From an uncultured bacterium (GTDB lineage Bacteria > Krumholzibacteriota > Krumholzibacteriia > JACNKJ01), in the NCBI GenBank assembly GCA_963695095.1, contig CAVOFT010000001.1, positions 2,272,001-2,336,000 of the forward strand: a stretch of 64,000 bases of DNA. The letters run 5' to 3'. The position numbers were made by a program, and so were the translations under genes. This document shows positions 23,843 to 63,107 of the stretch, one piece after another; the stretch's first letter is position 1; each line of letters starts with the position of its first letter. The notes under the pieces are model-generated. The model made no database searches. It saw only the letters and a program-made list of their open reading frames with translations, and was not told the origin of the DNA.

Positions 23843-25225
23843 TCAGTACAGCGACTTCACTTCGCCCCAGCTCTTGTCTTCGGCTGCTACGACCTCACAG
23901 CCCTCGCCGCGAGCGCCGATCTGCAGTCCGCAGTCATTGCCCGCGGGGGCGCAGGGCGATGCGGGCTGGAGCGTGTATGGGTCGGCAGGGTTGAGCCCCA
24001 GGCAGAATAGGGGATCCAGTGAGATGTTGCCGTTCGTCCCCGTGGGGTCGACCATATCGCCTGCGAAGTTGCCGCCGGGGTTGTTCCAGACATCGCAGCA
24101 GGACAGGACTGGGAAGGAGTACTCCAGGGTGTGGACTCCTCCCCCGGGATTGCCGACGATCAACACTTGCTCGAGCACAGGATCGGAGCCCGTGAGGCAG
24201 CTGATTCCGCCACCGCCCCAACCGGTATCGCTGTTGCCGACGAGCGTGCACCGCGTGATTCGCGGCGAAGCGTTCAGCCAGAGGCCAATGGCGCCGCCGC
24301 CATGAGCCGTGTTGCCAATGAAGAGGCACTCCTCAATGACAGGCACGCTGCGGCCGGCGATCGAGTTGCTTTCGTACCAGATCGCACCGCCATAGCGGGA
24401 GCCCATGTTGCCTTCAAAGACGCAGTCGCGGATCTCGACATCGGGCGTCCGCTCCAGGGCAATCGCCCCGCCATCTGAACCTTGATTCCCGGTGAAGGAG
24501 CAACCGCTGATGATCGCTTGCGAGGACAACTCGAGGGCGATCGCGCCACCGTCATCTGCGTCCAGGTTTGAATCAAATGAACATCCCGAGACACTGATCT
24601 CGGAGAAGGCAACGCTGAGCCCCCCTCCGGAGCCGGCACTATTGGACTCAAAGTCGGCGCTCTCGATGGTTGCTGATGCATAGACGATAGAGAGTGCGCC
24701 CCCCGTCCCCAGCGCGTGGTTGTCGACGAAGTCAGTCTCCTCCAGCAAAGCGCTTGCATAGAGCAACTCCCCTCCTCCCCCATGCGAAGCATGGCAGCTC
24801 TCGAAGCGCATTCCTGTGAGGCGGCAAGAAGAGTGCTCGCAGTAGATTCCCCCGCCGTTGAATCCTTCGACTCTCGCATTGCGGACTGTGAACCCGCTAA
24901 TGTGGGAGGCCGTCGTCTCGCCAGAATGTAAGTAGATACCTCGTCCGGCCTGTTGGCAATCGATGATCGTCTCATCGCGGCCCATCTCAGAATCAAGTAC
25001 GAGATCGATCCCGTGGAAGTCGAGATTGCGATTCGTGGTGCCAGTGTAAGTTCCGGGACCAACCAGCACCGTGTCGCCCACTTGGCAGGCATCGATAGCC
25101 GGCTGAATCGACATGAAGTCGCCCGTGCCATCGAGGCGCACGGCGTGCGTCGCGGCTGAGGCGCTGCTGCTCAGCACGAGTAGCAGCGCCCCAGCCTGCA
25201 GGAGATTCGCAGGTGCAATGCGCAT
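23843..25225 (-). CDS. Secreted right-handed parallel beta-helix (Pmp-like repeat) protein with short conserved C-terminal tail
   Basis: Signal peptide (ASA-ATH), DFMSIQPAID..GDTVLVGPGTY, repeated FxxN...GG[AG]I motifs, NISLDPLFC, ends VAAEDKSWGEVKSLY. Confidence 0.85.
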   Translation of the reverse strand: MRIAPANLLQAGALLLVLSSSASAATHAVRLDGTGDFMSIQPAIDACQVGDTVLVGPGTYTGTTNRNLDFHGIDLVLDSEMGRDETIIDCQQAGRGIYLHSGETTASHISGFTVRNARVEGFNGGGIYCEHSSCRLTGMRFESCHASHGGGGELLYASALLEETDFVDNHALGTGGALSIVYASATIESADFESNSAGSGGGLSVAFSEISVSGCSFDSNLDADDGGAIALELSSQAIISGCSFTGNQGSDGGAIALERTPDVEIRDCVFEGNMGSRYGGAIWYESNSIAGRSVPVIEECLFIGNTAHGGGAIGLWLNASPRITRCTLVGNSDTGWGGGGISCLTGSDPVLEQVLIVGNPGGGVHTLEYSFPVLSCCDVWNNPGGNFAGDMVDPTGTNGNISLDPLFCLGLNPADPYTLQPASPCAPAGNDCGLQIGARGEGCEVVAAEDKSWGEVKSLY

Positions 25226-25258
25226 GCTGCCTCCAATCGACGGCTGCTCTGGTGGTGC

Positions 25259-25492
25259 CTACATCTCCTTCAGGTGCAGAATCACCCGCGCCCAGATTCC
25301 TTCGTTCGCGCTCAAGGATACCACACTTCCGACCCCGAGCGCATCCGCCGCGACGCGGCCGATCAGCAGCGTTTCCTGGCTCCTTCCCTCTGCCAAGCCC
25401 TGCCGAAGGATCGGCGTGATGTCGAGTTGGAGAATCGCCTCCGATTCGCCGAAGGCAAAGGCAGCCACGGGGCCCGTCTTGCCTTCGGGGAT
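25259..25492 (-). pseudogene. 3' remnant of an unknown gene abutting the IS256 left end
   Basis: Open frame IPEGKTGPVAAFAF...LQLDITPILRQGLAEG...HLKEM* runs up to the IS boundary with no convincing start. Confidence 0.5.
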
Positions 25493-26810
25493 GAGTCTGT
25501 AAGGTTTTCTGTGTAACTGGCCTTGGGCTACACTCTATCGGAGGAGAGCGACCATGGCCAAACCAGATCCTGTGGACAAGCTGATCGACGAGCTGATCCT
25601 GGGCAAGCAGCCCGAGGAGATCCTCGGCAAGGACGGCGTGCTCAAGCAGCTCACGAAGCGGCTTGTCGAGCGCGCCCTCGAAGGCGAGATGACCCACCAC
25701 CTGGGCTACGCGCCGCATGCCCCCGAGGGCCGGGGCAGCGGCAATTCACGCAACGGCAAGACGAGCAAGACCCTGCTGGCCGAGAGCGGGGAACTGGAGA
25801 TCACCGTGCCCCGCGACCGCAGCGGCGAGTTCGAGCCGGTGCTCGTCCCCAAGCGCCAGCGCCGGCTCGCCGGCTTCGACGACAAGGTGATCGCGCTCTA
25901 CGCACGGGGCCTGACGACGCGCGAGATCCAGGCTCACCTCGAGGAGCTCTACGGCGTCGAGGTCTCGCCGCAACTGATCTCGGCGGTAACCGACGCGGTG
26001 CTGGACGAGGTCGCAGCCTGGCAGAACCGGCCGCTGGATCCGGTCTATCCGATCGTCTACTTGGATGCGATCCATCTCAAGCTGCGCAGCGAGGGCCGCG
26101 TGCAAAACCAGGCGGTCTACCTGGCGCTGGGGATCACGCTCGAGGGGAGGAAGGAGCTGCTCGGCCTGTGGATCGGCGAGAGCGAAGGGGCCAAGTTCTG
26201 GCTGGGCGTGATCACGGAGCTGCGAAACCGTGGGCTGCAGGACATCCTGATCGCCTGCGTGGATGGGCTGAAGGGCTTCCCCGAAGCGATCGAGACGGTC
26301 TACCCGCGGACGCAGGTGCAACTGTGCATCATCCACATGGTGCGCCATTCGCTCAAGTACGTGGGCTGGAAGGAGCGCAAGGCGGTGGCGGCGGATCTGC
26401 GGACGATCTACACGGCGGCCACGGCCGAGGCCGGGGAGCAGGCGCTGACGGCCTTCGAGGCGAAGTGGGGAGCGCGCTACCCGTCGATCGGCAAGAGCTG
26501 GCGGGCCAACTGGGCGAACCTGATCCCGTTCTACAGCTACCCGCCGGCAATCCGGAAGGTGATCTACACGACGAACGCGATCGAGTCGATGCAGGCGAGC
26601 CTGCGCAAGCTGCTGCGGCATCGGGGTGCTTTCCCGAACGCGGAGAGCGTGCGCAAGGTGCTATACTTGGCGCTGCAGCGGATCGCAAAGGGCTGGAAGC
26701 GGCCGGTCCTGGACTGGGTCGCGGCCCTGAATCACTTCAGCGTGGTGTTTGAGGGGAGAATCTAGCGGTGATCGGAGATGGGTCAGTTACACAGAATTCT
26801 GGACACACTC
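25493..26810 (+). mobile_element. IS256-family insertion sequence (~1.32 kb)
   Basis: Imperfect 30-bp terminal IRs GAGTCTGTAAGGTTTTCTGTGTAACTGGCC vs (rc) GAGTGTGTCCAGAATTCTGTGTAACTGACC, 23/30 identical, around one transposase gene. Confidence 0.92.
25554..26765 (+). CDS. IS256-family (Mutator-type DDE) transposase
   Basis: RNG..K, VPRDR.G.FEP, WQNRPLD, YLDAI, DGLKGFPEAI, QLCIIH, IYTTNAIES; GAGGAG SD. Confidence 0.96.
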   Translation: MAKPDPVDKLIDELILGKQPEEILGKDGVLKQLTKRLVERALEGEMTHHLGYAPHAPEGRGSGNSRNGKTSKTLLAESGELEITVPRDRSGEFEPVLVPKRQRRLAGFDDKVIALYARGLTTREIQAHLEELYGVEVSPQLISAVTDAVLDEVAAWQNRPLDPVYPIVYLDAIHLKLRSEGRVQNQAVYLALGITLEGRKELLGLWIGESEGAKFWLGVITELRNRGLQDILIACVDGLKGFPEAIETVYPRTQVQLCIIHMVRHSLKYVGWKERKAVAADLRTIYTAATAEAGEQALTAFEAKWGARYPSIGKSWRANWANLIPFYSYPPAIRKVIYTTNAIESMQASLRKLLRHRGAFPNAESVRKVLYLALQRIAKGWKRPVLDWVAALNHFSVVFEGRI

Positions 26811-26897
26811 GATCAGGGGTTGTTCCCCATCCGGCAATTGCGTCAGTATGAAGGACGGCGTGCGTTCACCCAAGAGACGTTCGACTGAGGTGGTCGC

Positions 26898-28304
26898 TTA
26901 GTAGGCGTTCTTGCGCGTGAGCACGGCGCGCAGGGTGAGCCAGAGGATCTTGAGGTCGAAGGCCAGCGACCAGTTCTCCACGTAGAACAGGTCGTAGCGC
27001 GTGCGCTCCTCGATCGGCGTGTCCCCGCGCAGGCCGTTGACCTGGGCCCAGCCGGTGATGCCGCTCCGCACGCGGTGCCGCTCGAAGTAGCGCGGGATGC
27101 TGCGCGCGAAGTCCTCGACGAACTCGGGCCGTTCCGGGCGCGGGCCGACCAGGCTCATCGCGCCCGTGAGCACGTTCCACAGCTGCGGCAGCTCGTCGAG
27201 GCTGCTCGCGCGCAGCCAGCCGCCCAGGCGCGTGCGGCGGGCGTCGCGGGGCGTGCTCCAGGCCGCGCCCGCCTGCTCGGCATCGCGGCGCATCGTGCGG
27301 AACTTGCGGATCACGAAGCGGCGGCCGTCGCGGCCCAGGCGCACCTGGCCGTACAGAACGGGCCGGCCGTCGTCCGCGAGCACGGCCAGGGCGATCAGAC
27401 CCAAGAGTGGCAAGAGCAGGAGCAGGGCGAGCGTCGCCACCGTCAGGTCGAGGCTGCGCTTGAGCACGCGGCCCAGACCCGAGAGCGGCACGTGGCGGAA
27501 GGCCAGGAAGGGCAGGCCCTCGATCTCCAGGTGGTGCAGGCGCGTGGTCAGCAGGCCGACGAGGTCGGGTACGAGGAAGCTGTTCACGTTCAGCGCCGAC
27601 AGGCGCGAGGCCAGCTCGACGAAGCGGTCGTAGCGGGCGAAGGGCAGGGTGACCACCACCGTGTCCAGCTCGTGGCGAGCGACCAGGGCCTCGAGCTCGG
27701 CGCTCTCGCCCAGCAGGGGCAGGCCCGCCGGCGGCGCCTCGCCGTCGGCGATGAAGCCCAGGGGCCGCAGCCCGTAGCCGGGATGCTCGGCGAAGAGCCG
27801 CCAGACGGGCAGCGCCATGGGACTCGCCCCCAGCACGGCCAGGTTGAGCACGCCATGGCCGCGCGCGAAGGCCTTCCCCTGGGCGAAGCGCAGCAGGCGG
27901 CGCAGGAGGACGAGCAGCAGGAAGGCCAGCAGCGCATAGGTGAGCACGTAGCTGCGCGAAAAGCTGAAGCCCCGCCAGAAGAAGAGGAAGCTGAGCAGCA
28001 GCGCCAGGCTGAGCGCGAGGCCGCCGGCCAGCTCGCCGAGATCGCGGCGCAGATCGCCCCGGCGCCGCGCTGCGTAGTGCCCGCGCTGGTAGAAGACGGT
28101 CAGGCAGAGCAGCGCGCTCACCGCGCCCGCGAGCAGGTAGACGCGCAGCGCGGGCACGCCCAGGGGCGTCGGGAAGAGGCCGCTGGCGAAGCGCAGGGCG
28201 TAGGTGCCCAGCGCGGCACCGGCCAGGGCGGCGAGGTCGCCCGCGAAGAGCAGGCTGGGCAGGAGCATGTCGGCCTTGCGCGTGCGCAGGAGGCGCTGGC
28301 TCAT
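26898..28304 (-). CDS. Undecaprenyl-phosphate glucose phosphotransferase (WcaJ/WbaP-like priming transferase)
   Basis: N-terminal TMs, KRSLD, KFRTM, LDELPQLWNVL.G.MSLVGPRPERP, GITGWAQVNG, DLFYVENWS. Confidence 0.93.
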   Translation of the reverse strand: MSQRLLRTRKADMLLPSLLFAGDLAALAGAALGTYALRFASGLFPTPLGVPALRVYLLAGAVSALLCLTVFYQRGHYAARRRGDLRRDLGELAGGLALSLALLLSFLFFWRGFSFSRSYVLTYALLAFLLLVLLRRLLRFAQGKAFARGHGVLNLAVLGASPMALPVWRLFAEHPGYGLRPLGFIADGEAPPAGLPLLGESAELEALVARHELDTVVVTLPFARYDRFVELASRLSALNVNSFLVPDLVGLLTTRLHHLEIEGLPFLAFRHVPLSGLGRVLKRSLDLTVATLALLLLLPLLGLIALAVLADDGRPVLYGQVRLGRDGRRFVIRKFRTMRRDAEQAGAAWSTPRDARRTRLGGWLRASSLDELPQLWNVLTGAMSLVGPRPERPEFVEDFARSIPRYFERHRVRSGITGWAQVNGLRGDTPIEERTRYDLFYVENWSLAFDLKILWLTLRAVLTRKNAY

Positions 28305-29437
28305 GCCGCCCCCTCGCCGAGGAAGTCCGCCAGTTCGCGCTGCAGGCCAGCCCGGAACTGCAGCTTGCCGAAGCGCTCGGCCTGGGCGCGCGCCAGCGCC
28401 GGATCCCAGGCGCCGGCCTCCAGGCGGGAGACCGCCTCCTGCAGGCTCGCGGCGCTGCGCTCGGCGAAGAAGAGGCCCGTCTCGCCCTCGATCACCGTTT
28501 CCAGGGCGCCGCCGACGCCGAGGGCGATCACCGGCTTGCCGCAGGCCTGGGCCTCCAGGGGCGTGATGCCGAAGTCCTCCTCGCCCGGTAGGATGAAGGC
28601 GCGCGCGCCGCGGTAGAGGGCGCGCAGCGCCTCGTCGTCCTGGCGGCCGAGGAAGACGATCGCCGGGTCCCCCGCCGCCAGCGCGCGCAGGCGGGCGGCG
28701 TCCGGGCCGTCGCCGGCCAGGAGCAGGCGGCGACGGCCGCCGGCGAAGGCGGCCAGGGCCAGATCGAGGCGCTTGTAGGGCACCATCGCCGAGACGATGA
28801 AGTAGTAGTCGCCCCCCTCGGCGGCGGCGGGCAGCGCGGCGCCCGGCGGACCGGGCGTGTAGAACTCAGCGTCCACGGGGGGCGGCAGCACGCGGCAGCG
28901 CTCGGGGGCGAGCTCCCAGAAGTCGATCAGCTTGCGGCGCACGTTCTCGCTGTTGGCCAGGTAGCGCTGGGCGCGATCCGCCGTCCGCCGGTCCCAGGCG
29001 CGCAACTGTGCCATCACGCGCGGCAGGACGCTGCGGCCGATCCAGTCCCGCCGCCCGCCGAAGTAGGCCTCGTACTGATCCCAGGCATAGCGCATCGGCG
29101 CATGACAATAGCAGAGGTGCCGCGCGCCGGGACGCAGCCGCACGCCCTTGGCCACGCAGTGGCTGGACGAGAGCACGAAGTCATAGTCCGAGAGGTCCAG
29201 GCTCTCGATGGCCAGGGGGAAGAGCGGCAGGTAGTGGCGGTAGCGGTGAGCCGCGCCGGGCAGGTGCTGGATGAAGGTCGTGCGAATGGGATGGCTCTCG
29301 ATGGCCGCACTCACGCTGCCCGGCAGATGCAGCAGCGTGTAGAGCGGCGCGCCGGGAAAGGCCTCCAGGAGCAGCTCCAGCACCTTCTCGCCGCCCCGCA
29401 TCCCCGTCAGCCAATCGTGGACGAGGGCCACCCGCAT
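28301..29437 (-). CDS. GT4-family glycosyltransferase
   Basis: MRVALVHDWLTGMRGGE, YCHAPMRYAWD, EDFGITPLEAQACG.PV. Confidence 0.92.
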   Translation of the reverse strand: MRVALVHDWLTGMRGGEKVLELLLEAFPGAPLYTLLHLPGSVSAAIESHPIRTTFIQHLPGAAHRYRHYLPLFPLAIESLDLSDYDFVLSSSHCVAKGVRLRPGARHLCYCHAPMRYAWDQYEAYFGGRRDWIGRSVLPRVMAQLRAWDRRTADRAQRYLANSENVRRKLIDFWELAPERCRVLPPPVDAEFYTPGPPGAALPAAAEGGDYYFIVSAMVPYKRLDLALAAFAGGRRRLLLAGDGPDAARLRALAAGDPAIVFLGRQDDEALRALYRGARAFILPGEEDFGITPLEAQACGKPVIALGVGGALETVIEGETGLFFAERSAASLQEAVSRLEAGAWDPALARAQAERFGKLQFRAGLQRELADFLGEGAA

Positions 29438-29441
29438 GGCG

Positions 29442-30042
29442 CTAGGCCCCACCGGCGAGCGGCGTGGGCGGCAGCTGGCGATCCACCAGCTTGCAGAGCA
29501 GATGGCCGATGGTGATGTGCGCCTCCTGGATCCACTGCGTGTCGTCGGCGGGCACGATGATGGCCTGGTCGCAGAGCGCCGCCAAGGGGCCGCCGCCCTT
29601 GCCGAGCAGGCCGATGACCGGCACGCCCTTGCGCGCGCGCGGCCTCGGCGGCGCGCAGCAGGTTCGGGCTCTTGCCGCTGGTCGAGATCAGCAGCAGCAG
29701 GTCCCGCGGCGCCACGAAGCCCGTCACCTGGCGCGCGAAGATCTCGGCGAAGCCGTAGTCGTTGCCCACCGAGCTCAGCGTGGAGCTGTTGGCGCCCAGC
29801 GTGTGCACGGCCCGGGCCGGCCGCTCGCTCTCCAAGCGCCCCTCCATTTCGGCAGCGATGTGCTGGGCATCGGCGGCGCTGCCGCCGTTGCCGGCCAGCC
29901 AGACGCTGCCGCCGGCCGCGAGCACCTCGGCGATGCGCGTCGCCGCGGCGGCGATCGCCTCGCTGAGGACCTCGAGCCGGGCGAAGAGCTCGCGGTGGCC
30001 GGCCAGATGGCCGGCAATGAGCGCTTTCATTTCGCCAGCCAT
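29442..30042 (-). pseudogene. gmhA: D-sedoheptulose-7-phosphate isomerase, frameshifted near 29631-29640
   Basis: GNGGSAADAQH, NDYGF..IFARQV and ISTSGKS in one frame; IQEAHITIGH in another; shift lies in a (GC)5 run. Confidence 0.85.
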
Positions 30043-30878
30043 CCCATCTCCTCCAGGTAGCGGCCGAGGGCGTCTTTCCAGCTCGGCATCTCCCGCCCGC
30101 GCAGGGCGGCCAGGCGCCCGCCGCCCAGGCGGCTGTTGGCCGGCCGCGGGGCGGGCCGGGGATACTCCGCCGTCGTGCAGGGATTCACCTGGGCGGGGTC
30201 GCGACCCAGCCCCGCCGCGATGGCCCGGGCGAAGCCGAACCAGGTGGTGGCGCCCGCGTTGCAGCCATGGTAGAGGCCCTCGCCGCGGGCTTCGGCGACA
30301 TCGAGGATGGCCGCCGCCGCATCGCGAGTATAGGTCGGCGAGCCCACTTGATCGTCCACCACCTTCAGCGCGCGGCCCTCCTTGAGCAGACCCGCGATCG
30401 TCGCCACGAAGTTCTTGCCCTGGGGACCGAAGGACCAGGACAGGCGCAGCACGCTGCCGCCGGCCGCGCGCACGCGCTGCTCGCCGAGCAGCTTCGAGCG
30501 CCCGTAGGCGCTGGTCGGGGCTGGCGGATCATCCTCCAGGTAGGGCTCGGCCTTGCGACCGTCGAAGACGTAGTCCGTGCTCACGAAAAGACAGTAGGCC
30601 CCCGCGCGCCCCGCGGCCTGGGCGATGGCCCCGCTCGCCTCGCCGTTGATGGCCAGCGCCAGGGCCTCCTGGCTCTCGCAGGCATCGACGTCGGTGAAGG
30701 CCGCCCCGTGCACGACGACTTCGGGCCGCGCCGCCGCCACCTGCTGGGCCGCCGCCTCGGGGCGGCCGAGCTCGAAGCCGGGCTGGTCCAGGCCCGTCAC
30801 CGCGTGGCCGCGGCGGCGGGCCTCCTCCACCAGGCGACCGCCCAGCATGCCCTCGGCCCCCGTGATGACGACACGCAT
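30027..30878 (-). CDS. rfbD: dTDP-4-dehydrorhamnose reductase
   Basis: ITGAEGMLG, AAFTDVD..E, STDYVFDG, YGRSK, VVDDQVGSPT, APRP.NS.L. Confidence 0.94.
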   Translation of the reverse strand: MRVVITGAEGMLGGRLVEEARRRGHAVTGLDQPGFELGRPEAAAQQVAAARPEVVVHGAAFTDVDACESQEALALAINGEASGAIAQAAGRAGAYCLFVSTDYVFDGRKAEPYLEDDPPAPTSAYGRSKLLGEQRVRAAGGSVLRLSWSFGPQGKNFVATIAGLLKEGRALKVVDDQVGSPTYTRDAAAAILDVAEARGEGLYHGCNAGATTWFGFARAIAAGLGRDPAQVNPCTTAEYPRPAPRPANSRLGGGRLAALRGREMPSWKDALGRYLEEMGWLAK

Positions 30879-32308: not shown

Positions 32309-32310
32309 CC

Positions 32311-53396: not shown

Positions 53397-56300
53397 ATGA
53401 TACAGCGCACTCCCGGCGACGCGCGTCGCCTTCTCCCCTTCACGCTCTTCGGTCTGCTCGCCCTGCTTGCCGTCATCGGTGCGGCCGCAGGCACTGCCCA
53501 CGCCGCCGGCGGCTACCTGCGCACGCCGGACATCCACGGCGGGACGGTGGTCTTCTGCGCCGAGGGCGACCTCTGGGCCGTCTCGGATCAAGGCGGACTC
53601 GCCCGGCGCCTCAGCTCGCATCCGGGCCTCGAGAGCCTGCCCAGCTTCTCGCCCGACGGCGCCTGGATCGCCTTCAGCGGCCAGTACGACGGCAATCGCG
53701 ACGTGTTCGTGATGCCCGCGGCCGGCGGCGAACCGCGGCGGCTGACCTGGCATCCCGCCTCCGAGGAGGTGCTGGGCTGGAGCCCGGACGGCAAGTTCGT
53801 CCTCTTCCGCTCCCGCGCCGAGATGCCCCACGGCAGCCACGAAGTCTACTCGGTGCCGGCCGCCGGCGGTGAACCCAGCAAGCTGCCCGTGGGTTGGGCG
53901 GCCCGCCTGGCCATCGAGCCCGACAGCGGGCGCTGGGCCTTCAGCCGCCCCTCATCGGAGACCTTCACCTGGAAGCGCTATCGCGGCGGCACGGCCGCCG
54001 AGATCTGGGTGGGCGATCCCCAGCGGGCCGACTTCCGCAAGGTGACCGATTTCCCGGGCTTCGACGCCTATCCGATGTGGCATGGCGGGCGGATCTACTT
54101 CCTCAGCGACCAGGGCGGCACCGCCGATCTCTGGTCGATGCTGCCCGACGGCAGCGACCGCCGGCGGCTCACCGACGAAGGCAACTGGGACGCCCGCTGG
54201 CCGGCGATCGGTCCCGACGGCCGCATCGTCTACATGCTGGCCGGCGGCATCAAGCTCTACGATCCGAGCACGCAGACGAGCCGCGTCATCCCGATCGAGT
54301 TGCCCAGCGAGCGCAGCCTGGCGCGCTCCCGCTACAGCGATGCCGCGCAGTTCCTCTCCGGCTTCAGCCTCGCCCCCGAGGGGGATCGACTGGCCATCGC
54401 CGCGCGCGGCGAGATCTTCGCCCTCCCGGTCGAGGACGGCGTTACCCTGCCTGTCACCCGGGGCAGCGGCGCCCGCGAGGAGTTTCCCGAGTACAGCCCC
54501 GACGGTAAGCGCCTGCTCTACGTCAGCGACGCCGGCGGCGAGGAGGCCATCCACAGCGCGGATGCCTGGGGCCGCGGCGAGGTCAAGATCCTGCGGCCGG
54601 CCGGCGAGCGGGGACATCTCTTCGCGCCCCTCTGGTCGCCGGACGGCAAGTGGATCGCTCTTCGGCGACGAGGCGCAGAATCTCTGGCTGCAGGCCGTCG
54701 CCGGCGGCGAAGCCCTGTGCATCGACAGCAGCGACCGCGGCCCGATCTACGAGTACAGCTTCAGCCCCGACAGCCGCTGGATCGCCTACGCGAAGGTCCT
54801 GCCCAACGACTTCGGCGGCATCTTCATCTACGACACCCAGGAGAAGCTGAGCCGGCGCATCACCAGTCCCTATACCGGCAACGGCTCGCCGGCCTGGGAC
54901 CCCGAGGGCAAGTACCTCTATTTCGTGGGCGGGCGCATGATGAACCCGCTGTTCGGCACCCGTGACTTCACCACTGTCGAGGTGAACAACGACAAGCTGT
55001 ATCTGGTTATTTTGCAGGTAGATGGAGAGAACCCCTTCGCCCATCTCGAAGGCGTACCCCCCAAGGCAGAGGCAAGCGGGAAGGAAGAGAAGGGCGGCAA
55101 GGCGAAGAAGGGCGCCCGCCCGGAGAAGTCCGGCAAGAAGGACAAAGACAAGGAAAAGGAGCAGCCCGAGGATGAGGGTCCCAAGCCCCTGCGCATCGAC
55201 TTCGCGGGCATCGACCAGCGCATGGTCGCTCTGGACGTCCCCGGCGGCCAGTACCGCGGCCTGGAGGCCATCGCCGGCAAGCTGTTCTACCTGAGCACGC
55301 CGCTGACCGGCTGGACCGAGAACCAGGACGAGGAGGACGCGCCCGCCAGCCTGATGGTCTTCGACCTCGAGGACGAAGAGGCCGAGGAGTTCATGGGCGG
55401 CGTGGCTGGCTTTCGGATCGCCGCCAAGGGCGAGAAGATGGTCGTCGCCAAGGGGCCCGGCGAGCTCTACGTCGTCGGCACCGACAGCAAGCCGGACGAT
55501 CTCAGCGAGGCCGGCGTCTCCCTGGCCGGTGTGGTGATCGACCTCGATCCCCGCGAGGAGTGGGCCCAGATCTACCACGAGGCCTGGCGGCGCATGCGCG
55601 ACCGCTACTGGGACGAGAGCATGGCCGGCGTCGACTGGGCGGCCATGCGCGAGCAGTACGCGACCCTGCTGCCCTTGCTCGCCCACCGGGACGACCTCGG
55701 CGATCTGCTCGGCGAGCTGATCGGCGAGCTGAACACCAGCCACACCTACGTCTGGGGCGGCGATCGCGGCGGCGACACGCCGAGCGTCGCGACGGGGCTG
55801 CTCGGCGCCGATCTCGCCCGGGAGGGCACGGCCTACCGCATCGCTCGCCTCTACCGCGGCGACGAGGCCGACGATCTCGCCGCGCCCCTGCTCGCGCCCG
55901 GGGTCAATCTGCGCGAGGGCCAGTACATCCTCGCCGTCAACGGGCTGCCCTTCACGGCCGATCGGCCCTTCCATGCCAGCCTGGAGACGCTCGCCGGCAA
56001 GGACGTGCTGCTCACCGTCGCCGACGACGCGGCCGGCAAGCAGGGTCGCCGCGACGTGGTGGTCACCACTCTGCGCAACGAGCACGATCTGCGCTACGCC
56101 GACTGGGTGCGCCGCAACCGCGAGTGGGTGGATCAGGCCTCGGGCGGCAGCTTCGGCTACGTGCACATCCCCGACATGGGTTACAGCGGCATGACGGCTT
56201 TCGACCGCTGGTACTACCCGCAGCTGGACAGGGAAGGCATGGTCGTCGATTGCCGCTGGAACGGCGGCGGCTTCGTCTCGCAGATCCTGCTCGAGCGCCT

Positions 56301-56772
56301 GCGCCGGCCGGTGACGGCCTGGGACCGCAGCCGCTTCGGCGGCGTCGACACCTATCCCTATCGCACGCTCAACGGGCCCTTCGTCGTGCTCACCAACCAG
56401 GAGGCCGGCTCCGACGGCGACATCCTGCCGCGGGCCGTGCAGATCGAGAAGCTGGCCCCCGTGATCGGCATGCGCTCCTGGGGCGGCGTCATCGGCATCA
56501 GCAGCACGCAGAGCCTGGTCGACGGCGGCACGGTGACCTTCCCCTTCGCCGCCTGGTGGGAAAAGGACGGCGGCTGGACGCTCGAGAACCACGGCGTCGA
56601 CCCCGACATCGTGGTCGAGAACCTGCCGCAGGAGGTGGCAAGCGGCAAGGACAGCCAGCTCGAGCGCGGCCTGACCGAGCTCACGCGCCTCCATGCGCAG
56701 GAGCCGCCCGCGAAGCCGGACTTCGGCAGCATCCGCCCCAGGTCTCGCGAGAGCTTCCGCCCCGAGCGCTAG
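53397..56772 (+). pseudogene. Tricorn-like S41 protease, +1 frameshift near 54658
   Basis: PD40 propeller repeats (FSPDG, WSPDG), ELNTSHTY (His), PDZ region, GYVHIPDM, AGSDGD (Ser), RSWGG, ENHGVDPDI; split between the 53394 and 54082 frames at WIA/LFGDE. Confidence 0.9.
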
Positions 56773-56793
56773 AGCCGGCAAGCCTTCCCCGTC

Positions 56794-56833
56794 GCGGCGC
56801 GGCCCCCCTCGCGGGGCCGCGCCGTTGCCTTTG
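56794..56833 (+). terminator. Probable intrinsic terminator after the tricorn gene
   Basis: GCGGCGCGGCCCC/GGGGCCGCGCCGT stem followed by TGCCTTTGT. Confidence 0.55.
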
Positions 56834-57008
56834 TCCTGCGCGGCTGGCGTCTGCCTTGCAAGCACGCCCATGTCTGCGGCCACGACGGCGGCCGGGATGG
56901 CGCAGGATTCCCGACGATTCCCTGCGCTACCCGCCTGTGCCCCGCTCCATGCGGGATCGGCAAAGGCTGCCGCAGCCCCGGCTGCACAACTGCGCAAGGA
57001 GATGCATA

Positions 57009-57578
57009 ATGAGAAAGCTGCTAACGAGTCTGCTGGTGCTGGCCCTGGCCAGCGGTGTCGCCGCTGCCGACAGCTACATCGGCCTCTTCGCCGTCCCCCA
57101 CGCCACCTACTGCTACGGCAACACCGAGCAGTACACCACGACCACCGTGCACGTGGTCGCCTGGCTCGACAACGACTGGTCCGGCTCCGTGTCGGCCTGC
57201 GAGTTCTACATCGACAACTTCCCCGTGGCCGGCGCCGAGGGTGCGATCACCACGAACTGGAACACGCCGCTGGTAATCGGCCAGGTGAGCTACGGCATCG
57301 CGCTGGCCTTCAACCCGCCGCTGCCTGGCCCCTTGGCCTATCTCGGCAGCATCGAGTTCTTCGCCCTCGACCCCAACTGGATTCCCGCGAACTACGTGAT
57401 GGCGGTCCGTCCCTCTCGCCAGAGTGACACCCTCGCCCTCGTGGACACGCAGGGCCAGACGATGGCGGTGGCCGGCGGCCAGTACACCTTCAACTGCTCG
57501 AACCCGAGCACCTGCGATTGCCTGGAGTCGGTGGCCACCGATGCGACCAGCTTCAGCAGCGTGAAGGCCCTGTACTAG
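57009..57578 (+). CDS. Hypothetical secreted beta-rich protein with conserved C-terminal tail
   Basis: AAGGAG SD, MRKLLTSLLVLALASGVAAA signal peptide, YIGLFA, TFNCS..CDC, ends VATDATSFSSVKALY. Confidence 0.85.
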   Translation: MRKLLTSLLVLALASGVAAADSYIGLFAVPHATYCYGNTEQYTTTTVHVVAWLDNDWSGSVSACEFYIDNFPVAGAEGAITTNWNTPLVIGQVSYGIALAFNPPLPGPLAYLGSIEFFALDPNWIPANYVMAVRPSRQSDTLALVDTQGQTMAVAGGQYTFNCSNPSTCDCLESVATDATSFSSVKALY

Positions 57579-57607
57579 CTCACTGCTCGGACTTCTGCTC
57601 CATGACG

Positions 57608-57636
57608 AAGGGGCCGCGCCAGCGCGCGGCCCCTTT
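57608..57636. terminator. Bidirectional terminator between convergent genes
   Basis: AAGGGGCCGCGC-CAGC-GCGCGGCCCCTT(T) 12-bp stem. Confidence 0.7.
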
Positions 57637-57684
57637 GCATTTGCCGGGCGCAGGTGCTCGCTGCGCCGAAAGCCGACAGATGCT

Positions 57685-60600
57685 CTACCTCAGCAGCACG
57701 AGCTTCTGCGCGGCCGCGCGGCCGCCGGCTCGCAGCTGCACCAGGTAGACGCCGCTGGCCAGGGCGCGACCCGCCTCGTCGCGACCGTCCCAGGCCACGG
57801 CCTGCACGCCGACGCTCCTGGGCTCCCCGGCAAGGAGCCGCCGCAGGCGGCGGCCACCGAGATCGAAGATGCCGAGCTCCACCGCGGCGGGCACGGCCAG
57901 GCTGAAGCGGATCTCCGTGCGCGGGTTGAAGGGATTGGGATGGGCACCGAGCAGGGCGAAGGCCACCGGCGGGGTGTCCACCGCTGTACTGGTCTCTTCG
58001 ACCGCAAGCCGTTGATCTGCGGGCACGCCATGGAGGCGGCTTTCGAGGCCGCTCGGCCAGCGCAGGATGAGCGTATCGACGACGCTCTCCGCGCCGAGCC
58101 CGAAGTGCAGGGTGGGCGCATTCTGCGACAGGTAGCCGGCGTCCCCGCCCAGCGCTCGCGTCACGCGCAGCGGGCCGGCGACGGCGGTCACCCGCGCGCC
58201 CAGGCCGAGCCGGTTGCTCGCCGTGCCCACGAGGTCGAGCGCGAGCCAGTGGCCGCCGGGCGTATCGTTGCGCACGAGGCGGTTGGGGCCGTCGGCGTAG
58301 GCGAGGTAGAGATCGAGATCGCCGTCATCCTCGATGTCGGCCCAGGCGGCGCCGTTGCCGATCCCCGTTGCGCCGAGGGCGGGATGGGTGGCATCGCTGA
58401 AGCCGGCAGCCCCCTGGTTCATGAACAGCTTGCTGGCCCCGCTGTTGACGAGGTAGAGGTCGAGCCAGCCGTCGGCATTGAAGTCGGCCCAGGCGGCGCC
58501 GCGACCCGTACCGGCGTCATCCAGGGGCGGCGTCGTGACGTTCACGAAGGCCGCACCGTCATTGCGATAGAGGCGATTCGCCCCATCGTTCACCACGTAG
58601 ACATCCAGGTCGCCATCGTTGTCGAAGTCGGCCCAAGCCGCGCCGTAGCCGTTCCCGGCATCGCCGAGGCCCAGCGCGGCCGTCGCCTCGCTGAAGCTGC
58701 CGTCGCCGCCGTTCCGGTAGAAGATGTTGCTGGTCTGCCGGACGAGGTAGAGGTCGCGGTCGCCGTCGCCGTCGGCATCCGCCCACTCGGCCGAGCGCCC
58801 CCAGCCTGCGTCGCCCAGGGGCGCCACCGTGGCGTCGACGAAGCTGCCGGCGCCCAGGTTCCGGAGCAGACGATCGGGGGCATAGGCGTTGACCACGTAG
58901 AGATCGACCAGGCCATCGTCGTCGGCATCGCCCCAGGCGACATCGGTGCTGTACTCCGCGCCCCCGAGCGGTCCCGCGGTGATGTCCACGAAGCTACCGG
59001 CGTCATTGCGAAAGAGCAGGTTGGACTGGCCGCTCGTGCGGGCGAGGTAGAGGTCGAGGTCGCCGTCGTTGTCGATGTCGGCCCAGGCGGCGCCGCGGCT
59101 CGCTCCGTTCACGTCGATGGGCGGCGCGCCCGCGCCGGTGAAGACGCCGCCGCCCTGGTTCGCGAAGAGCCGGTTCGGGCTGCCCGAGTTGCTCAGGTAG
59201 AGGTCCGGGAGGCCATCGCCATCGGCATCGCCCCAGGCAACGCTCTGGCCGTTGCCGGCGTCCGCCAGGGGAGCGGCGCTGATGTCCGTCCAGGCGCCGG
59301 CGCCGAAGACGCCGAAGTATGGACTCCAGGCGAAGTGGCCGTCGTCACCGACCACCTTGATCCGGAAGTCGTTGCCGGTGCCCCAGGCCGGGTCGACGCT
59401 GCCCGCCGGAGTCTCCTCGCCATCGTTGGCCGACCAGTCGGCGAGCCGGGTCAAGAAGGCGCTGCCCGCGTAGAGGTCGAGCACGACCGCGCTCCCGCTC
59501 GCCCCCGTCCAGACCACGGCCGGCAGCGGCTCGCCGTGCGTCAGCACGGAACCGGCGGCCGGGGCCGTCACGCTGAAGTAGCCGAGAGGTTCGATGCCCA
59601 CGACCATGCCCTCGGTCATGTAGTCGCAGCCCGTCCAGGGGCAGTAGACCTCATCCAGGGCGTACCAGACGTTCTGGCTGCCGCCCCAGCCGTAGTTCAT
59701 GTGGTAGTAGCGCGCGCCGGCGTCCTCCTGATAGCCGTCGCAGATGATCGAGTGGCTCGTGATGCGGTAGTGCATGGGCCGCGGCGGGAAGGCGTCGAGT
59801 TCCTGGCAGATGCGCGCCCACCAGGCGTCGGCGCTGTGCTGACTGCGCGTGATGTAGGCAGCATCCGGCGCGTAGCGGAAGTAGGTCGGGTAGACGGTCT
59901 CGCCCAGGTTCACGTAGCTGCCCGAGGCGCAGACGCCGAAGTCCATGTCGAAGGCCACGGCAACCTCGTAGTTCAGCTCGGCCGCGGCGGCGGCCTGGGC
60001 GGCGTTGTAACCGCCGGAATAGGAGACGAGGATGTTGGCCCAGTCGTAGGCGTCGCTGTAGTCCGCACTGAGCAGGCCGCCGCCGACGTTCTCGCCGCAG
60101 GAGTCGTCGCCGCCCCACTGATAGCTGTGCGAGCCGCTGCCGGCAGCGGGGTAGTTCCAGTACTTGAGGATCATCGCCGCCGAGGTGGCCACGCAGCCCA
60201 CCACGCAGGTGCCGCCGTCCCCCGGCGGACAATCGCCATTGAAGGGCGCGCCCTGGGCCCAGTTGCTGGCGATCAGCGGCCCCACCGGAGCCTCGCGCGG
60301 CGCCGGGGCGGTGCCGGCGAGCAGGGCTGTCCACGCCGCACGCGCCCGGTCGGCGGCCGGGTCCGCCCCCGCCGCCGGCGCGCCGGCGGCGAGGCGCTCG
60401 TGGGCGATGAACAGGGTCTCGCGCAGGAGCGCGGCATAGCCGTCCCGATCCGCCGTCATGAGATCCGTTGCAAAGGAGAAAGCCTTGATGGGCGGCAGCT
60501 CGCGCGCCGCCGAGACCAGGATGTGTCCGCGGGGCGCGAGGGGCAGCTGCCAGCCGATCAGCCGGCCGCCCTGGGCCCAGGGCTGGCAGCCGACGATCCG

Positions 60601-60756
60601 CGCCGCGGCGGCCTCGGGGTCGCGAGCCTGACGGGCAGCCAGCCAGACCTGGGCGGCCCGCAGGGCGTCGGCGTTGCCGACGGGCGTGGCCGTGGCGGCC
60701 AGGGCGCCGCCGGCCAGCGCCGACAGCAGGATGAGCGCGATGAAGAGACGGGACAT
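57685..60756 (-). CDS. Secreted C10 (streptopain-like) cysteine peptidase with 7 FG-GAP repeats, ASPIC/UnbV domain and FlgD-Ig (T9SS-like) C-terminal domain
   Basis: WAQG.PFN, VGCVATSAAMILKY (Cys), HSIICDGY (His), HMNYGWGG; seven AW[GA]D.D.DG..D[LV]Y repeats; SNR.G.GARV, GYLSQN..LHFGLG; PNPFNP...WDGRD..G..LASGVY...K. Confidence 0.9.
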   Translation of the reverse strand: MSRLFIALILLSALAGGALAATATPVGNADALRAAQVWLAARQARDPEAAAARIVGCQPWAQGGRLIGWQLPLAPRGHILVSAARELPPIKAFSFATDLMTADRDGYAALLRETLFIAHERLAAGAPAAGADPAADRARAAWTALLAGTAPAPREAPVGPLIASNWAQGAPFNGDCPPGDGGTCVVGCVATSAAMILKYWNYPAAGSGSHSYQWGGDDSCGENVGGGLLSADYSDAYDWANILVSYSGGYNAAQAAAAAELNYEVAVAFDMDFGVCASGSYVNLGETVYPTYFRYAPDAAYITRSQHSADAWWARICQELDAFPPRPMHYRITSHSIICDGYQEDAGARYYHMNYGWGGSQNVWYALDEVYCPWTGCDYMTEGMVVGIEPLGYFSVTAPAAGSVLTHGEPLPAVVWTGASGSAVVLDLYAGSAFLTRLADWSANDGEETPAGSVDPAWGTGNDFRIKVVGDDGHFAWSPYFGVFGAGAWTDISAAPLADAGNGQSVAWGDADGDGLPDLYLSNSGSPNRLFANQGGGVFTGAGAPPIDVNGASRGAAWADIDNDGDLDLYLARTSGQSNLLFRNDAGSFVDITAGPLGGAEYSTDVAWGDADDDGLVDLYVVNAYAPDRLLRNLGAGSFVDATVAPLGDAGWGRSAEWADADGDGDRDLYLVRQTSNIFYRNGGDGSFSEATAALGLGDAGNGYGAAWADFDNDGDLDVYVVNDGANRLYRNDGAAFVNVTTPPLDDAGTGRGAAWADFNADGWLDLYLVNSGASKLFMNQGAAGFSDATHPALGATGIGNGAAWADIEDDGDLDLYLAYADGPNRLVRNDTPGGHWLALDLVGTASNRLGLGARVTAVAGPLRVTRALGGDAGYLSQNAPTLHFGLGAESVVDTLILRWPSGLESRLHGVPADQRLAVEETSTAVDTPPVAFALLGAHPNPFNPRTEIRFSLAVPAAVELGIFDLGGRRLRRLLAGEPRSVGVQAVAWDGRDEAGRALASGVYLVQLRAGGRAAAQKLVLLR

Positions 60757-60800
60757 GGGGAGCCTCCAGGACGGGGAGCGGGGCGGCACTCGGTATTCTA

Positions 60801-60828
60801 ACTATAGCAGAGGCAGCAAAGGCGGCAA
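60801..60828 (-). promoter_or_regulatory. Putative sigma70 promoter for the C10 peptidase gene
   Basis: TTGCCG-N16-TATAGT with TG extension. Confidence 0.45.
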
Positions 60829-60910
60829 AGCGCCCAGTCGGCGCGCTGCGCGCTGGACAGCAGGGCCCGCGCAGCCTAGTCTGCGGCCGGCCCGCGACCC
60901 GGAGGCCGCC

Positions 60911-62326
60911 ATGCGCAACACGAAGATCGTCGCCACCATCGGTCCCGCCTCCGAGTCGCCGGCCGTGCTGGCGGCTCTGCTCGAGGCCGGCATGAACGTG
61001 GCCCGACTCAACTTTTCCCACGGCACCCACGATGAGCATCGCGCCAAGGTGGCCGCCCTGCGCGAAGTCTCCGCGCGCCTGGACAAACCGGTGGCGATCC
61101 TGCAGGACCTCGCAGGGCCGAAGATCCGCGTGGGCGAAATCATCGGCGGCAGCGTGCGCCTCGCTCCCGGTGGCGAGTTCCGCCTGCGCCTGGCCGGCGG
61201 CCCCGGCGACGCGAGCGGGGTCAGCGTGAACCAACCGCGCCTGATCGAGGAGGTGCGCCCCGGCGATCACCTGCTCCTGGCCGACGGCGCGCTGGAGCTG
61301 GAGGTGCTGCGGCAGGCCGGCGAGGAGCTCGTCACGCGGGTGCTGGTCGGCGGCCTGCTCGGCTCGCGCAAGGGCATCACGCTGCCGAGTCGCACCCTGA
61401 GCGTGGCCAGCTTGACGGAGAAGGATCGGGCCGACCTCGCCCTCGGCCTGGAGCTGGGCGTGGACTTCGTGGCGCTCTCCTTCGTGCGCAGCGTCGAGGA
61501 TCTCGCCGAGTGCCGCCGCGCCATGGCCGACGCCGGGGAGCCGGTGCCGCTGATCGCCAAGATCGAGAAGCACGAGGCCCTGGTCAACATGGACGCCATC
61601 ATCGCCGCCGCCGACGGCATCATGGTGGCCCGCGGCGACCTCGGCGTGGAAACGCCCTTGGCCCGCGTGCCCGCCGTGCAGAAGCAGCTCATCGCCAAGT
61701 GCAACCGGGCCGGGATTCCCGTGATCACCGCCACCCAGATGCTGGGCTCGATGGCGGCGAGCCCGCGGCCCAGCCGCGCGGAGGTCACGGACGTGGCCAA
61801 TGCCATCCTCGACGGCACCGACGGCGTCATGCTGTCCGAAGAGACCGCCACCGGCGCCTATCCCGTCGAGGCGGTGGCCACGATGGACCGCATCGCCCTG
61901 GAGACCGAGACGGTCTTCCCCTACGCGACCTGGGGCGAGCGCGTGGCCCACAGCGCTCGCCAGGGGATTCGCGAGGCGGTGGCCCAGGGCGCCTGCGCCC
62001 TGGCGGAGGCCATCGACGCGGCGGCGATCATCCCCTTCACCCGCACGGGCGGCACGGCGCAGCTGGTGGCCAAGTACCGGCCGCGCGTGCCCATCCTCGC
62101 GCCCTGTTCGCTTCCCGCCACCCGCCGGCGCCTGCTGCTCAGCTGGGGGGTATTGCCTTTGGCCAGCGAGCGGCTCGCCGACAGCGAGGCCATGCTGCGC
62201 CACGCTTGCGAAGTGGCCAAGGCGACGGGCCTGGTCGCCTCCGGCCAGCGCGTGGTGCTCACCGCCGGCCTGCCGGTGGGGAGCGAGGGTGTCACGAACA
62301 CCATCCGGGCCGCCGTGCTGGACTGA
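60911..62326 (+). CDS. pyk: Pyruvate kinase
   Basis: TKIVATIGPAS, RLNFSHG, DLAGPKIR, AKIEK, MVARGDLGVE, TATQML, DVANA, MLSEETA. Confidence 0.97.
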   Translation: MRNTKIVATIGPASESPAVLAALLEAGMNVARLNFSHGTHDEHRAKVAALREVSARLDKPVAILQDLAGPKIRVGEIIGGSVRLAPGGEFRLRLAGGPGDASGVSVNQPRLIEEVRPGDHLLLADGALELEVLRQAGEELVTRVLVGGLLGSRKGITLPSRTLSVASLTEKDRADLALGLELGVDFVALSFVRSVEDLAECRRAMADAGEPVPLIAKIEKHEALVNMDAIIAAADGIMVARGDLGVETPLARVPAVQKQLIAKCNRAGIPVITATQMLGSMAASPRPSRAEVTDVANAILDGTDGVMLSEETATGAYPVEAVATMDRIALETETVFPYATWGERVAHSARQGIREAVAQGACALAEAIDAAAIIPFTRTGGTAQLVAKYRPRVPILAPCSLPATRRRLLLSWGVLPLASERLADSEAMLRHACEVAKATGLVASGQRVVLTAGLPVGSEGVTNTIRAAVLD

Positions 62327-62355
62327 ACAACCCCCGCCCGCAATGCGGACGGGGG
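62327..62355 (-). terminator. Terminator between convergent pyk and 62400..63107
   Basis: Minus strand CCCCCGTCCGC-ATT-GCGGGCGGGGG then TTGTT. Confidence 0.6.
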
Positions 62356-62399
62356 CTGCTGAGTCCCTGCCGCGCCTGGCGCGGCGCCAAGGCAATCGG

Positions 62400-63107
62400 C
62401 TAGTAGAGGGCCTTGACCGCGCTGAAGGTGCTCGCCTCCACCGCCACCGAGCCACCGCCCATCTGGAACAGCTCCGTGCCCGTCGTGCTGCCGCTCATGC
62501 CCTGCAGGAGGCTGCCGGGGGCCCCCACGAAGTCGATGCGGTAGGTGATGTCGAAGAAGCTGTCGACCGCGAACGGCGCGCCCGCGGCGCCCTCGCGAGT
62601 CAGCGTCGTGTGGCCGGGGCTGGGCATGCCGAAGCCGGTGCCGGCCGTCACGCGCAGCAGGTCGAAATCCGGGTCGCCAAAGATCTCGCCTTGGAGCATG
62701 AACATGTCCGTGTCGAAGCTCTGGACGGCGTCGCCCGGCGTGCGCGGCCCGCTGTGTGTCTCAGCCGCGACCGGGATGGCGATCAGGCGATTGAAGCCCG
62801 CCAGGCTGCCGGTGCCGGTCAGGGCCATGTGCAAGCTGCCGTCGAAGGTCTGCAGCTGGCCGCCCAGGCCGCCCCCGGCCACCTCCGAGGCGCCGCTGAA
62901 GTCGTTCAGGGCGCCGGCCACGGTGATCGTCGACCCCACGGGCAGCCCATCGGTGATGACCATGGGACCTTCCCAGCCATCGGGGCAGGCCGGCGGCAGG
63001 TCGATCGTGCCGCCGCCGTTGTCGGGCACGGAGCAGGCGGCGCCTGCCGTGCCGGCCAGGGCGAGAATGAGCGCAGGAACAAGCAGGTGCTTGAGCAGAC
63101 GGTGCAT
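62400..63107 (-). CDS. Hypothetical secreted protein (SFDTDM / VDSFFDI motifs) with conserved C-terminal tail
   Basis: GGGAGG SD, signal peptide, ends VAVEASTFSAVKALY. Confidence 0.85.
   Translation of the reverse strand: MHRLLKHLLVPALILALAGTAGAACSVPDNGGGTIDLPPACPDGWEGPMVITDGLPVGSTITVAGALNDFSGASEVAGGGLGGQLQTFDGSLHMALTGTGSLAGFNRLIAIPVAAETHSGPRTPGDAVQSFDTDMFMLQGEIFGDPDFDLLRVTAGTGFGMPSPGHTTLTREGAAGAPFAVDSFFDITYRIDFVGAPGSLLQGMSGSTTGTELFQMGGGSVAVEASTFSAVKALY

Follow-up and report, generated by a model that had tools for sequence, protein, structure and literature searches.

A short C-terminal tail on unrelated exported proteins of an uncultured bacterium is probably an undescribed address or anchor label

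C-terminal signals on exported proteins have led to the machines that handle them: LPXTG to sortase, PEP-CTERM to exosortase and the CTD (C-terminal domain) to T9SS, the type IX secretion system. The type A CTD of T9SS (TIGR04183 / PF18962; here the FlgD_ig-like PF13860), with its shuttle PorV and its sortase PorU, is found at the C-terminus of unrelated Sec-exported proteins. According to the accessible parts of PMC12618676, PorV is the reader for all type A CTDs, and PorP/SprF-like shuttles read those of type B. Folded CTDs are given as the T9SS signal in the accessible parts of both PMC12618676 and PMC11285876, and those of the former contain no short signal. We have analysed a 64,000-nucleotide stretch of DNA (the window; positions 2,272,001 to 2,336,000 of contig CAVOFT010000001.1, assembly GCA_963695095.1) from an uncultured bacterium of the Krumholzibacteriota lineage. 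Three of its genes encode exported proteins that end in one short tail. The tail, which recurs throughout the genome, is probably an undescribed address or anchor label.

The three open reading frames (ORFs) from which the original prediction started agree exactly, in position and ending, with the translations (Table 1). A six-frame search for the core motif located exactly three tails in the window. All three proteins have a signal-peptide-like N-terminus, read directly from the translations. The first, of 460 amino acids (aa), begins with MRIAPANLLQAGALLLVLSSSASAATHAV, which we read as a signal peptide, and gives the top-scoring match to the tail profile in the window (37 bits). Pfam assigns it to Beta_helix (PF13229, E 8.2e-20), plus Chlam_PMP repeats. 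The second (189 aa) begins with the signal-peptide-like MRKLLTSLLVLALASGVAAADS; its body, or passenger, resembles a tandem family of tail proteins and a T9SS-CTD protein elsewhere in the genome, to judge from the C-x-C ending that they share. Neither this protein nor the third (235 aa) reaches a Pfam gathering score or matches an NCBIfam family. The proposal that the three bodies are unrelated thus stands, one being a beta-helix and the other two belonging to no Pfam or NCBIfam family.

The source assembly comprises 3.64 Mb in two contigs, with 70% G+C. Six-frame translation yields 41,378 stop-to-stop ORFs no shorter than 40 aa, and these were searched with the core expression [STA][WFY][GSA].[VILM]K.[LIMV][YFW]. 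The motif occurs 43 times genome-wide and 39 of these occurrences lie within 0-2 residues of the stop; about one stop-adjacent occurrence would be expected by chance, as roughly estimated from ORF number and total length. The placement of the tail at C-termini is not chance. Numbered from the last aromatic residue, the 39 tails contain Lys at -3 (39/39), Leu at -1 (39/39), Tyr at 0 (37/39), Trp or Phe at -7 (39/39) and Ser at -8 (31/39); the aromatic residue is the exact last residue in 32 of them. The consensus in the source family spans some 16 residues, T-[TA]-[AG]-[VT]-E-[ED]-x-S-[WF]-[SG]-x-[IV]-K-[SA]-L-Y-stop. A hidden Markov model (HMM) built on the final 22 residues and applied to every ORF added 23 looser C-terminal tails, in which the Trp position is occupied by L, M, I or N, bringing the total to about 62 proteins; it made no other significant internal match in the ORFs of the source genome. 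The expectation that many proteins would carry the tail is therefore borne out, with 39 strict and 23 relaxed cases.

Tail proteins are strongly enriched in signal peptides, as had been predicted. A gene set was called crudely by third-position G+C and holds 2,667 genes, among them 31 of the 39 strict tails. Signal-peptide-like starts are present in 29/31 strict tail genes and in 1086/2636 other genes (Fisher p 1.4e-9); with a broader motif the figures are 45/48 and 1070/2619 (p 2e-14). A signal peptide was accepted at any start codon in the first 60% of the ORF, which inflates the background, and because the background is over-called the contrast is conservative. Among the tail ORFs that lack a signal peptide, two are short beta-helix fragments.

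Homologues of the 235-aa protein provide what we regard as the strongest argument for a sorting role. A first search, by word index with the last 45 residues, recovered 7 proteins from 9 candidates and is uninformative on distribution. Homologues found in this way keep variants of the tail (...WSAVKSLYR, ...TWGGVKALYR), and in two the passenger is followed by PEP-CTERM (P0006 and P0007, the latter with a precomputed PF07589 match). The passenger is a widespread domain, for which an exhaustive HMMER search gave 876 representative homologues at E<=0.001. C-termini were compared among the best 150 of these 876, a list dominated by long multi-repeat proteins. Tail variants terminate the single-domain homologues P0002-P0005, P0133, P0154 and P0157, with endings such as ...TWSDVKEEYREEE, ...TWGAVKAHYR and ...SWSAVRSLYE. 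The passenger of P0152 is followed by a VPLPA-like end, transmembrane plus basic, and that of P0148 by a T9SS CTD; the multi-domain relatives P0010 and P0039 have IPTL-like ends. A regular expression classed 23 of the best 150 as CTD-like, one of them doubtful, and flagged 0 of the 150 as tail; the tail variants were found by reading the 14 sequences shorter than 420 aa. The tail thus occupies the place of known sorting signals (PEP-CTERM, VPLPA-like, IPTL-like and T9SS CTD) on homologous passengers, in line with the original proposal of a sorting signal. Such replacement is the classic signature of signals of this kind.

The CTD is the alternative C-terminal module of the source genome, and the window itself contains an instance. 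This 1034-aa protein matches Peptidase_C10 (2.7e-41), FG-GAP_3 (9.5e-58) and FlgD_ig (7.9e-10) in Pfam; its C-terminus is a T9SS domain of the FlgD_ig type, which scores 20.3 bits against NCBIfam Por_Secre_tail, slightly below the cut-off of 23. An iterated HMM built from this CTD identified 158 proteins, 148 of which have the domain at the C-terminus, and 0/158 also carry the tail. Tail proteins have CTD-bearing paralogues, with 52% identity over 153 aa in one case and 34% over 322 aa in another. The homology extends to the last Cys or to a linker of T-A-A-E-E type and then diverges; beyond this point one paralogue has the tail and the other has further domains or a linker and a PNPFNP-type CTD. 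Tail genes lie within three genes of a CTD gene in 27/48 cases, against 13.2 expected for random exported genes (0/2000 shuffles).

A strict DNA pattern gave 28 matches in the source genome, 4-35 in each of 11 other genomes of the same family and 0-3 per genome elsewhere in the class, with 0-1 for a reversed-pattern control. By this measure the tail looked like a family-restricted trait (15/41 relatives, 11/11 in its own family). That view was overturned by a protein profile, A1 (22 columns, built from 24 tails; match threshold E<=0.01), which matches 208/208 genomes of the phylum, including 125/125 of high quality. The strict pattern had misled because it missed variants with extra residues after Tyr. 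Matches to A1 number at least 1 to 42 per genome, these counts being lower bounds. Four unrelated control genomes, reached through chance pattern matches and labelled Poribacteria, Sandaracinaceae, Bacteriovoracaceae and Dehalococcoidia, gave 0 matches. One further unrelated genome has a single match on a 2.5-kb contig with two adjacent tail genes; this contig may be mis-binned.

Outside the source family the tail takes the form [VI]-P-[TA]-E-x-[ST]-[ST]-W-G-x-V-K-x-L-Y with 1-4 residues added, and what follows the Tyr varies (none, R, RD, GD, SEE or GIDR). The tail had been described as the extreme C-terminus; this is correct for the source family, and elsewhere in the phylum it has to be modified to allow for the 1-4 residues after Tyr. 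We note that in family f6 (L019 4834-9065, L022 6744-9962) a tandem family ending in ...[ST][WF]G.VK.RF stands beside normal K.LY tails; any reader would therefore need to accept the variant.

The tail is also present in a second, small phylum. A Coatesbacteria-labelled genome has 8 core-only matches (for example ...NSTWGEIKALY and ...TSWGAVKALY), and 21/25 genomes of its phylum match the profile, those without a match being G218, G219, G220 and G222. Recurrence in related candidate phyla, which formed part of the original prediction, is thus confirmed for two phyla (208/208 and 21/25 genomes). Public records bearing the pattern are labelled Eisenbacteria, Krumholzibacteriota, Latescibacterota or Fibrobacter(aceae). 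For three such labels the genome is identical in match coordinates to one of the source phylum, and so the apparent spread over many named phyla is partly a matter of labelling. Beyond the first description, the analysis contributes the phylum-wide occurrence (208/208), a second phylum with the tail (21/25), grounds for excluding exosortase, the finding that SprA does not discriminate, the family-specific form of the tail (no residue after Tyr, and T-A-V-E-E where others have V-P-T-E) and this caution over labels.

No known family accounts for the tail, as had been proposed. In the three full window proteins the tails are covered by no Pfam or NCBIfam family, and ten 40-residue tail segments from six genomes matched 0 Pfam or NCBIfam families at E<=10. 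The motif is not described in the literature searched, with subscription journals and supplements lying outside that search. The tail is neither confined to three proteins nor equally frequent in cytoplasmic ones, and it is not a catalogued domain with a non-sorting function.

Comparison with described systems brings out both likenesses and differences. Like the T9SS CTD, the tail has many carriers in the same genome (148 for the CTD, about 62 for the tail) encoded by dispersed genes; the two also have passenger families in common and are preceded by a similar acidic linker, and SprA was found in every tail genome tested. Unlike the CTD, which is folded and has about 83 residues, the tail has about 16, matches no T9SS model and never occurs together with it. 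PEP-CTERM of the exosortase system and the VPLPA-CTERM and IPTL-CTERM signals (TIGR02595, PF07589, TIGR02602) are likewise short, C-terminal and present on many signal-peptide proteins; outside the source family the tail even starts with a V/I-P-x-E element. The tail differs from them in having neither a transmembrane helix nor an Arg cluster: nine residues follow its linker, with Lys in the centre and no more than one Arg. As regards LPXTG/sortase, GlyGly-CTERM/rhombosortase and MYXO-CTERM, the tails, read directly, contain neither such a motif nor a hydrophobic stretch as long as 15 residues; the enzymes themselves were not searched for. Outer-membrane beta-signals and C-termini read by PDZ domains also place an aromatic residue at or near the C-terminus of exported proteins, BamA and DegS recognising Y-x-F-COOH. 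In the tail, by contrast, the hydrophobic residues are spaced by three and not two, the modelled passenger is a sandwich and not a barrel, and residues follow the Tyr in most of the phylum.

Our preferred explanation, to which we give somewhat better than an even chance, is that the tail serves Sec-exported proteins as a portable C-terminal tag for sorting or retention, read by a conserved envelope protein. We favour sorting or anchoring because of the C-terminal position, the restriction to exported proteins, the portability, the exclusion of the CTD, the replacement of known signals and the conservation throughout the lineage. The near-invariant Lys, Leu and Tyr and the small residues at -6 and -2, kept in dozens of paralogous contexts, would argue for one protein reader. 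On this mechanism the protein would be exported through Sec, its signal peptide would be cleaved and the passenger would then fold. The flexible tail would present W/F, I/V, L and Y, spaced by three, together with the invariant Lys, and would be bound by one conserved envelope protein. That reader would direct or hold the cargo at the outer membrane or the cell surface. Within this explanation we favour, at roughly one in three overall, a reader located within or beside the type IX secretion/attachment apparatus, which all tail-bearing genomes tested possess; the tail would then serve small proteins that lack the 83-residue CTD.

Several observations weigh against a sorting tag with a reader of its own. 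The reader is something that we infer from conservation. One passenger is a plastocyanin/azurin-type copper protein, and such proteins are usually periplasmic. Neighbourhoods were compared in the source genome and at 37 tail loci from 25 other genomes, partly chosen from tail-poor genomes, and they include no recurrent non-cargo neighbour of tail genes. Co-occurrence with T9SS is compatible with the proposal but non-discriminating, SprA being universal in both phyla: it is present in 128/128 genomes of the source phylum that are at least 90% complete and in 25/25 of the second phylum, where the four genomes without a tail-profile match keep it too. Known T9SS signals need an Ig-like fold, according to the accessible part of PMC11285876, and a tail of about 16 residues cannot form one.

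Of 127 neighbour ORFs no more than two genes away from a tail, 84 were scanned against Pfam, ORFs below about 130 aa and obvious overlaps being excluded. A rhomboid, a TonB/TPR pair and ExbB-like/DUF2149/CobN neighbours are each confined to one genus or genome, and the scanned neighbours are otherwise housekeeping genes. The source genome encodes SprA (424 bits), PorU (438 bits, above its cut-off) and, adjacent to PorU, a PorV-like barrel (112 bits, below the cut-off of 250), with six more PorV-like barrels elsewhere. These seven barrels were considered as partners of the tail and rejected, each of them pairing with a large CTD protein and not with tail genes. The original prediction had invoked a dedicated outer-membrane translocation or anchoring machine; since neither the neighbourhoods, nor the exosortase, nor T9SS yielded a reader gene, we can still only infer its existence. 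The search is nevertheless narrowed: the reader is not an exosortase, is not encoded beside its clients and should occur in the 208/208 and 21/25 genomes that have the tail.

Two observations made near T9SS-related genes are recorded here in their own right. Two C25-like CTD peptidases, paralogues of PorU, adjoin tail clusters, which we judge compatible with chance (a rough estimate of about 0.05). An operon at L206 2719-17453 (contig C1 1815715-1830812), encoding TonB_C, ExbD, ExbB, a 998-aa TPR protein, a PorV-like/FlgD_ig protein and a 2236-aa CTD protein, divergently adjoins the tail gene L206 17816-18727. No second instance of such a Ton-motor operon beside a tail gene was seen at the other loci examined.

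We regard tentatively, as possible, a separate sorting pathway of Eisenbacteria-type candidate phyla. A single envelope reader, possibly a T9SS-associated shuttle or a sortase-like enzyme, would recognise W-G-x-[IV]-K-x-L-Y. Small Sec-exported proteins would be carried across the outer membrane or fixed to the surface, and the invariant Lys or the upstream P-T-E / A-V-E-E would be the site of chemistry. If true, this would be the first short linear signal for outer-membrane or surface sorting without a transmembrane segment in diderms.

It is rather unlikely that the tail is an anchor without a reader, that is, a short interfacial peptide by which the exported protein adheres to a membrane leaflet or to lipopolysaccharide. 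PBP5 and MinD have C-terminal membrane-targeting helices that need no dedicated machine, and the targeting helices of E. coli PBP5/PBP6, MinD and FtsA resemble the tail in being short, aromatic and basic, free of the protein body and without a machine gene nearby. The lack of a machine gene in any neighbourhood examined fits such an anchor, as do the freely varying residues after Tyr and the composition of the tail (aromatic W/Y, hydrophobic I/L, basic K, often R); periplasmic tethering would make sense for passengers such as the cupredoxin. Helices of this kind are sequence-degenerate and protein-specific, whereas the tail is one tight motif in about 60 proteins of the source genome and across phyla, with near-invariant Lys, Leu and Tyr and fixed small residues phylum-wide. 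Nine residues with a central Lys are also very short for stable binding, and the conserved upstream acidic or Pro-Thr-Glu element would be left without a role.

Structure prediction bears on the same point. AlphaFold2, supplied with a 13-sequence alignment, models the 235-aa protein as a strand-rich passenger (mean predicted local distance difference test score, pLDDT, of 73), for which Foldseek found no match in the PDB at E<=0.001. The pLDDT falls below 50 for residues 225-235, where a nominal helix is drawn at 228-234; these residues lie outside the sandwich, of which the tail is not a strand. A free tail with a nominal helix would suit a reader-less anchor. The Eisenberg hydrophobic moment of the nine-residue core at 100 degrees, 0.318, is however not above that of shuffled tails (0.281 +/- 0.128). 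The moment has its maximum (0.46) at 120 degrees, which reflects the spacing of W/F, I/V and L by three, and its minimum at 160-180 degrees. With pLDDT below 50 and an alpha-helical moment no higher than for shuffled tails, the short amphipathic helix of the original prediction can be regarded as no more than a candidate. The model indicates a free appendage of uncertain conformation that is not packed on the passenger, which also speaks for the sorting tag.

We think it improbable that the tail is a tag for proteolysis or quality control, serving as the ligand of a periplasmic PDZ protease (Tricorn/S41/Tsp or DegS-like) in processing, turnover or stress sensing. The idea draws on the 32/39 source-family tails that end at Tyr, much as hydrophobic C-terminal PDZ ligands do, and on the S41 protease with a PDZ domain directly upstream of the gene for the 189-aa protein. 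No S41 or PDZ gene is present among the 84 scanned neighbours from other genomes, and the proximity in the window is probably coincidence. With 1-4 variable residues after Tyr outside the source family, a free carboxylate on a fixed residue is not conserved. A degradation tag, moreover, would not be expected to alternate with surface-sorting signals on one passenger.

The carriers of the tail are mostly small, with a median of 222 aa against 624 aa for T9SS-CTD proteins. Of the 48 tail proteins in the gene set, the 32 lying in fetched regions were scanned, and 26 of these have no Pfam match at E<=0.01; the remainder include the plastocyanin/azurin-type copper protein, PPC, an InhA-like MAM domain and DUF7901. 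The same holds for 34/41 tail proteins from other genomes, where CBM96, an apiosidase-like hydrolase and some weak matches to beta-helix families are among the others. Passengers are thus diverse, ranging over beta-helix, cupredoxin, PPC, MAM-like, CBM96 and apiosidase-like proteins. Tandem arrays are common, 17/48 tail genes adjoining another tail gene (1.8 expected).

Small proteins in tandem arrays, clustered near large CTD surface proteins, might also be taken for subunits that polymerise or dock on a surface scaffold, with the tail donated as a strand or serving as a docking peptide, as happens in type V pili or in dockerin-cohesin assembly. We consider this very improbable. No receptor module was found to repeat, a single polymer could not be built from such diverse passengers, and the alternation with PEP-CTERM and CTD signals points to sorting.

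That the tail is a functionless relic, the leftover first segment of a truncated T9SS CTD, appears highly improbable. A T-A-V-E-E-type linker does precede the tail and, more loosely, the CTD (about 16 residues upstream of PNPFNP), and both the tail and the matching CTD segment finish in an aromatic residue. The tail is nevertheless better conserved than that segment, from which the invariant Lys is missing; it persists in dozens of genes of each genome in two phyla, and the tail HMM made no other significant internal match.

The source genome has one exosortase (L153 1426-2292(+), contig C1 3397471-3398337; PF09721 200 bits). It scores 170 bits against TIGR02602, above the cut-off, and does not reach the cut-off of any of the 14 named exosortase, cyanoexosortase and archaeosortase subtypes to which it gave a match, including XrtA, XrtW, XrtD and XrtV. 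The gene adjoins an O-antigen-ligase-like gene. A PF07589 search of the source genome gave 0 PEP-CTERM matches, the control also giving none, and a PEP-like motif was present in 0/126 of its C-termini with a transmembrane segment plus basic residues. Exosortase occurs in 1/91 genomes of family f2 and was not found in the tail-rich, 99-100% complete genomes G004, G005 and G009. A shortened PEP-CTERM-type signal, with V-P-T-E replacing V-P-E-P and cut by the exosortase of the source genome, is therefore scarcely credible: a lone exosortase without detected PEP-CTERM proteins and the V/I-P start that the [VI]-P-[TA]-E tails share with exosortase signals speak for it, but the tail has no transmembrane helix and the enzyme is present in 84/208 genomes (54/125 of high quality) against 208/208 for the tail, so that exosortase was rejected as the reader.

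About 2% of the genes of the source organism (some 62 of about 2,700) carry a label that neither databases nor the searchable literature explains, and a similar number would carry it in each genome of the phylum. A signal that is short and lacks both a transmembrane helix and a folded domain would imply a mode of recognition not yet described in diderm bacteria. The tag groups many small 'dark' exported proteins into one functional class and offers a simple annotation rule for the surface and secreted proteome of uncultured soil and sediment phyla. It is also a possible minimal targeting peptide.

Table 1 Coordinates of the tails, their genes and neighbouring features in the window
Feature	Position	Strand	Basis or remark
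Gene of exported right-handed beta-helix protein, 460 aa	23843..25225	-	ORF, translation, Pfam
Tail 1, VAAEDKSWGEVKSLY	23846..23890	-	Stop at 23843-23845; tail HMM 25.8 bits; distance to ORF end 0
Cys site before a tail	23891-23911		
Gene of exported 189-aa protein, ends in tail	57009..57578	+	Translation; C-x-C motif before tail
Cys site before a tail	57510-57530		T-C-D-C-L-E-S
Tail 2, VATDATSFSSVKALY	57531..57575	+	Stop at 57576-57578; tail HMM 24.4 bits; profile A1 34.1 bits
Gene of exported 235-aa beta-sandwich protein, ends in tail	62400..63107	-	Translation; AlphaFold2 mostly strands
Tail 3, VAVEASTFSAVKALY	62403..62447	-	Stop at 62400-62402; tail HMM 26.6 bits
Peptidase_C10 / FG-GAP exported protein, 1034 aa	57685..60789	-	Contrast case, not part of the tag
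Tricorn-like S41 protease, Tricorn_C1 and PDZ domains	54082-56772	+	Directly upstream of 57009-57578, same strand
Mutator/IS256-family transposase, intact-looking	25554-26765	+	PF00872, E 4.5e-127

A Cys residue, often in a C-x-C motif, is found 12-25 residues before the last aromatic residue in 22/48 tail proteins, against 96/990 windows of random exported proteins. This Cys may belong to the end of the passenger, as a disulfide staple, rather than to the tag.

Between the transposase and the start of the beta-helix tail gene there are 330 bases. The ordinary genes flanking the tail genes in the window also include those for a uridine kinase, a sugar transferase, a pyruvate kinase and a 5'-nucleotidase. 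In genome G163 the sole profile match is located (L128 4917-16875) among genes for a TonB-dependent receptor and for CTD-like, ExbB-like, DUF2149 and CobN proteins. This arrangement suggests an accessory role for some tail proteins in outer-membrane uptake systems. Finally, a 38-aa ORF of the source genome (contig C1 3314586-3314702(-)) ends in a perfect tail, ...ESSAWSSVKALY, and is preceded by an in-frame TGA; it may represent selenoprotein read-through or a broken gene.

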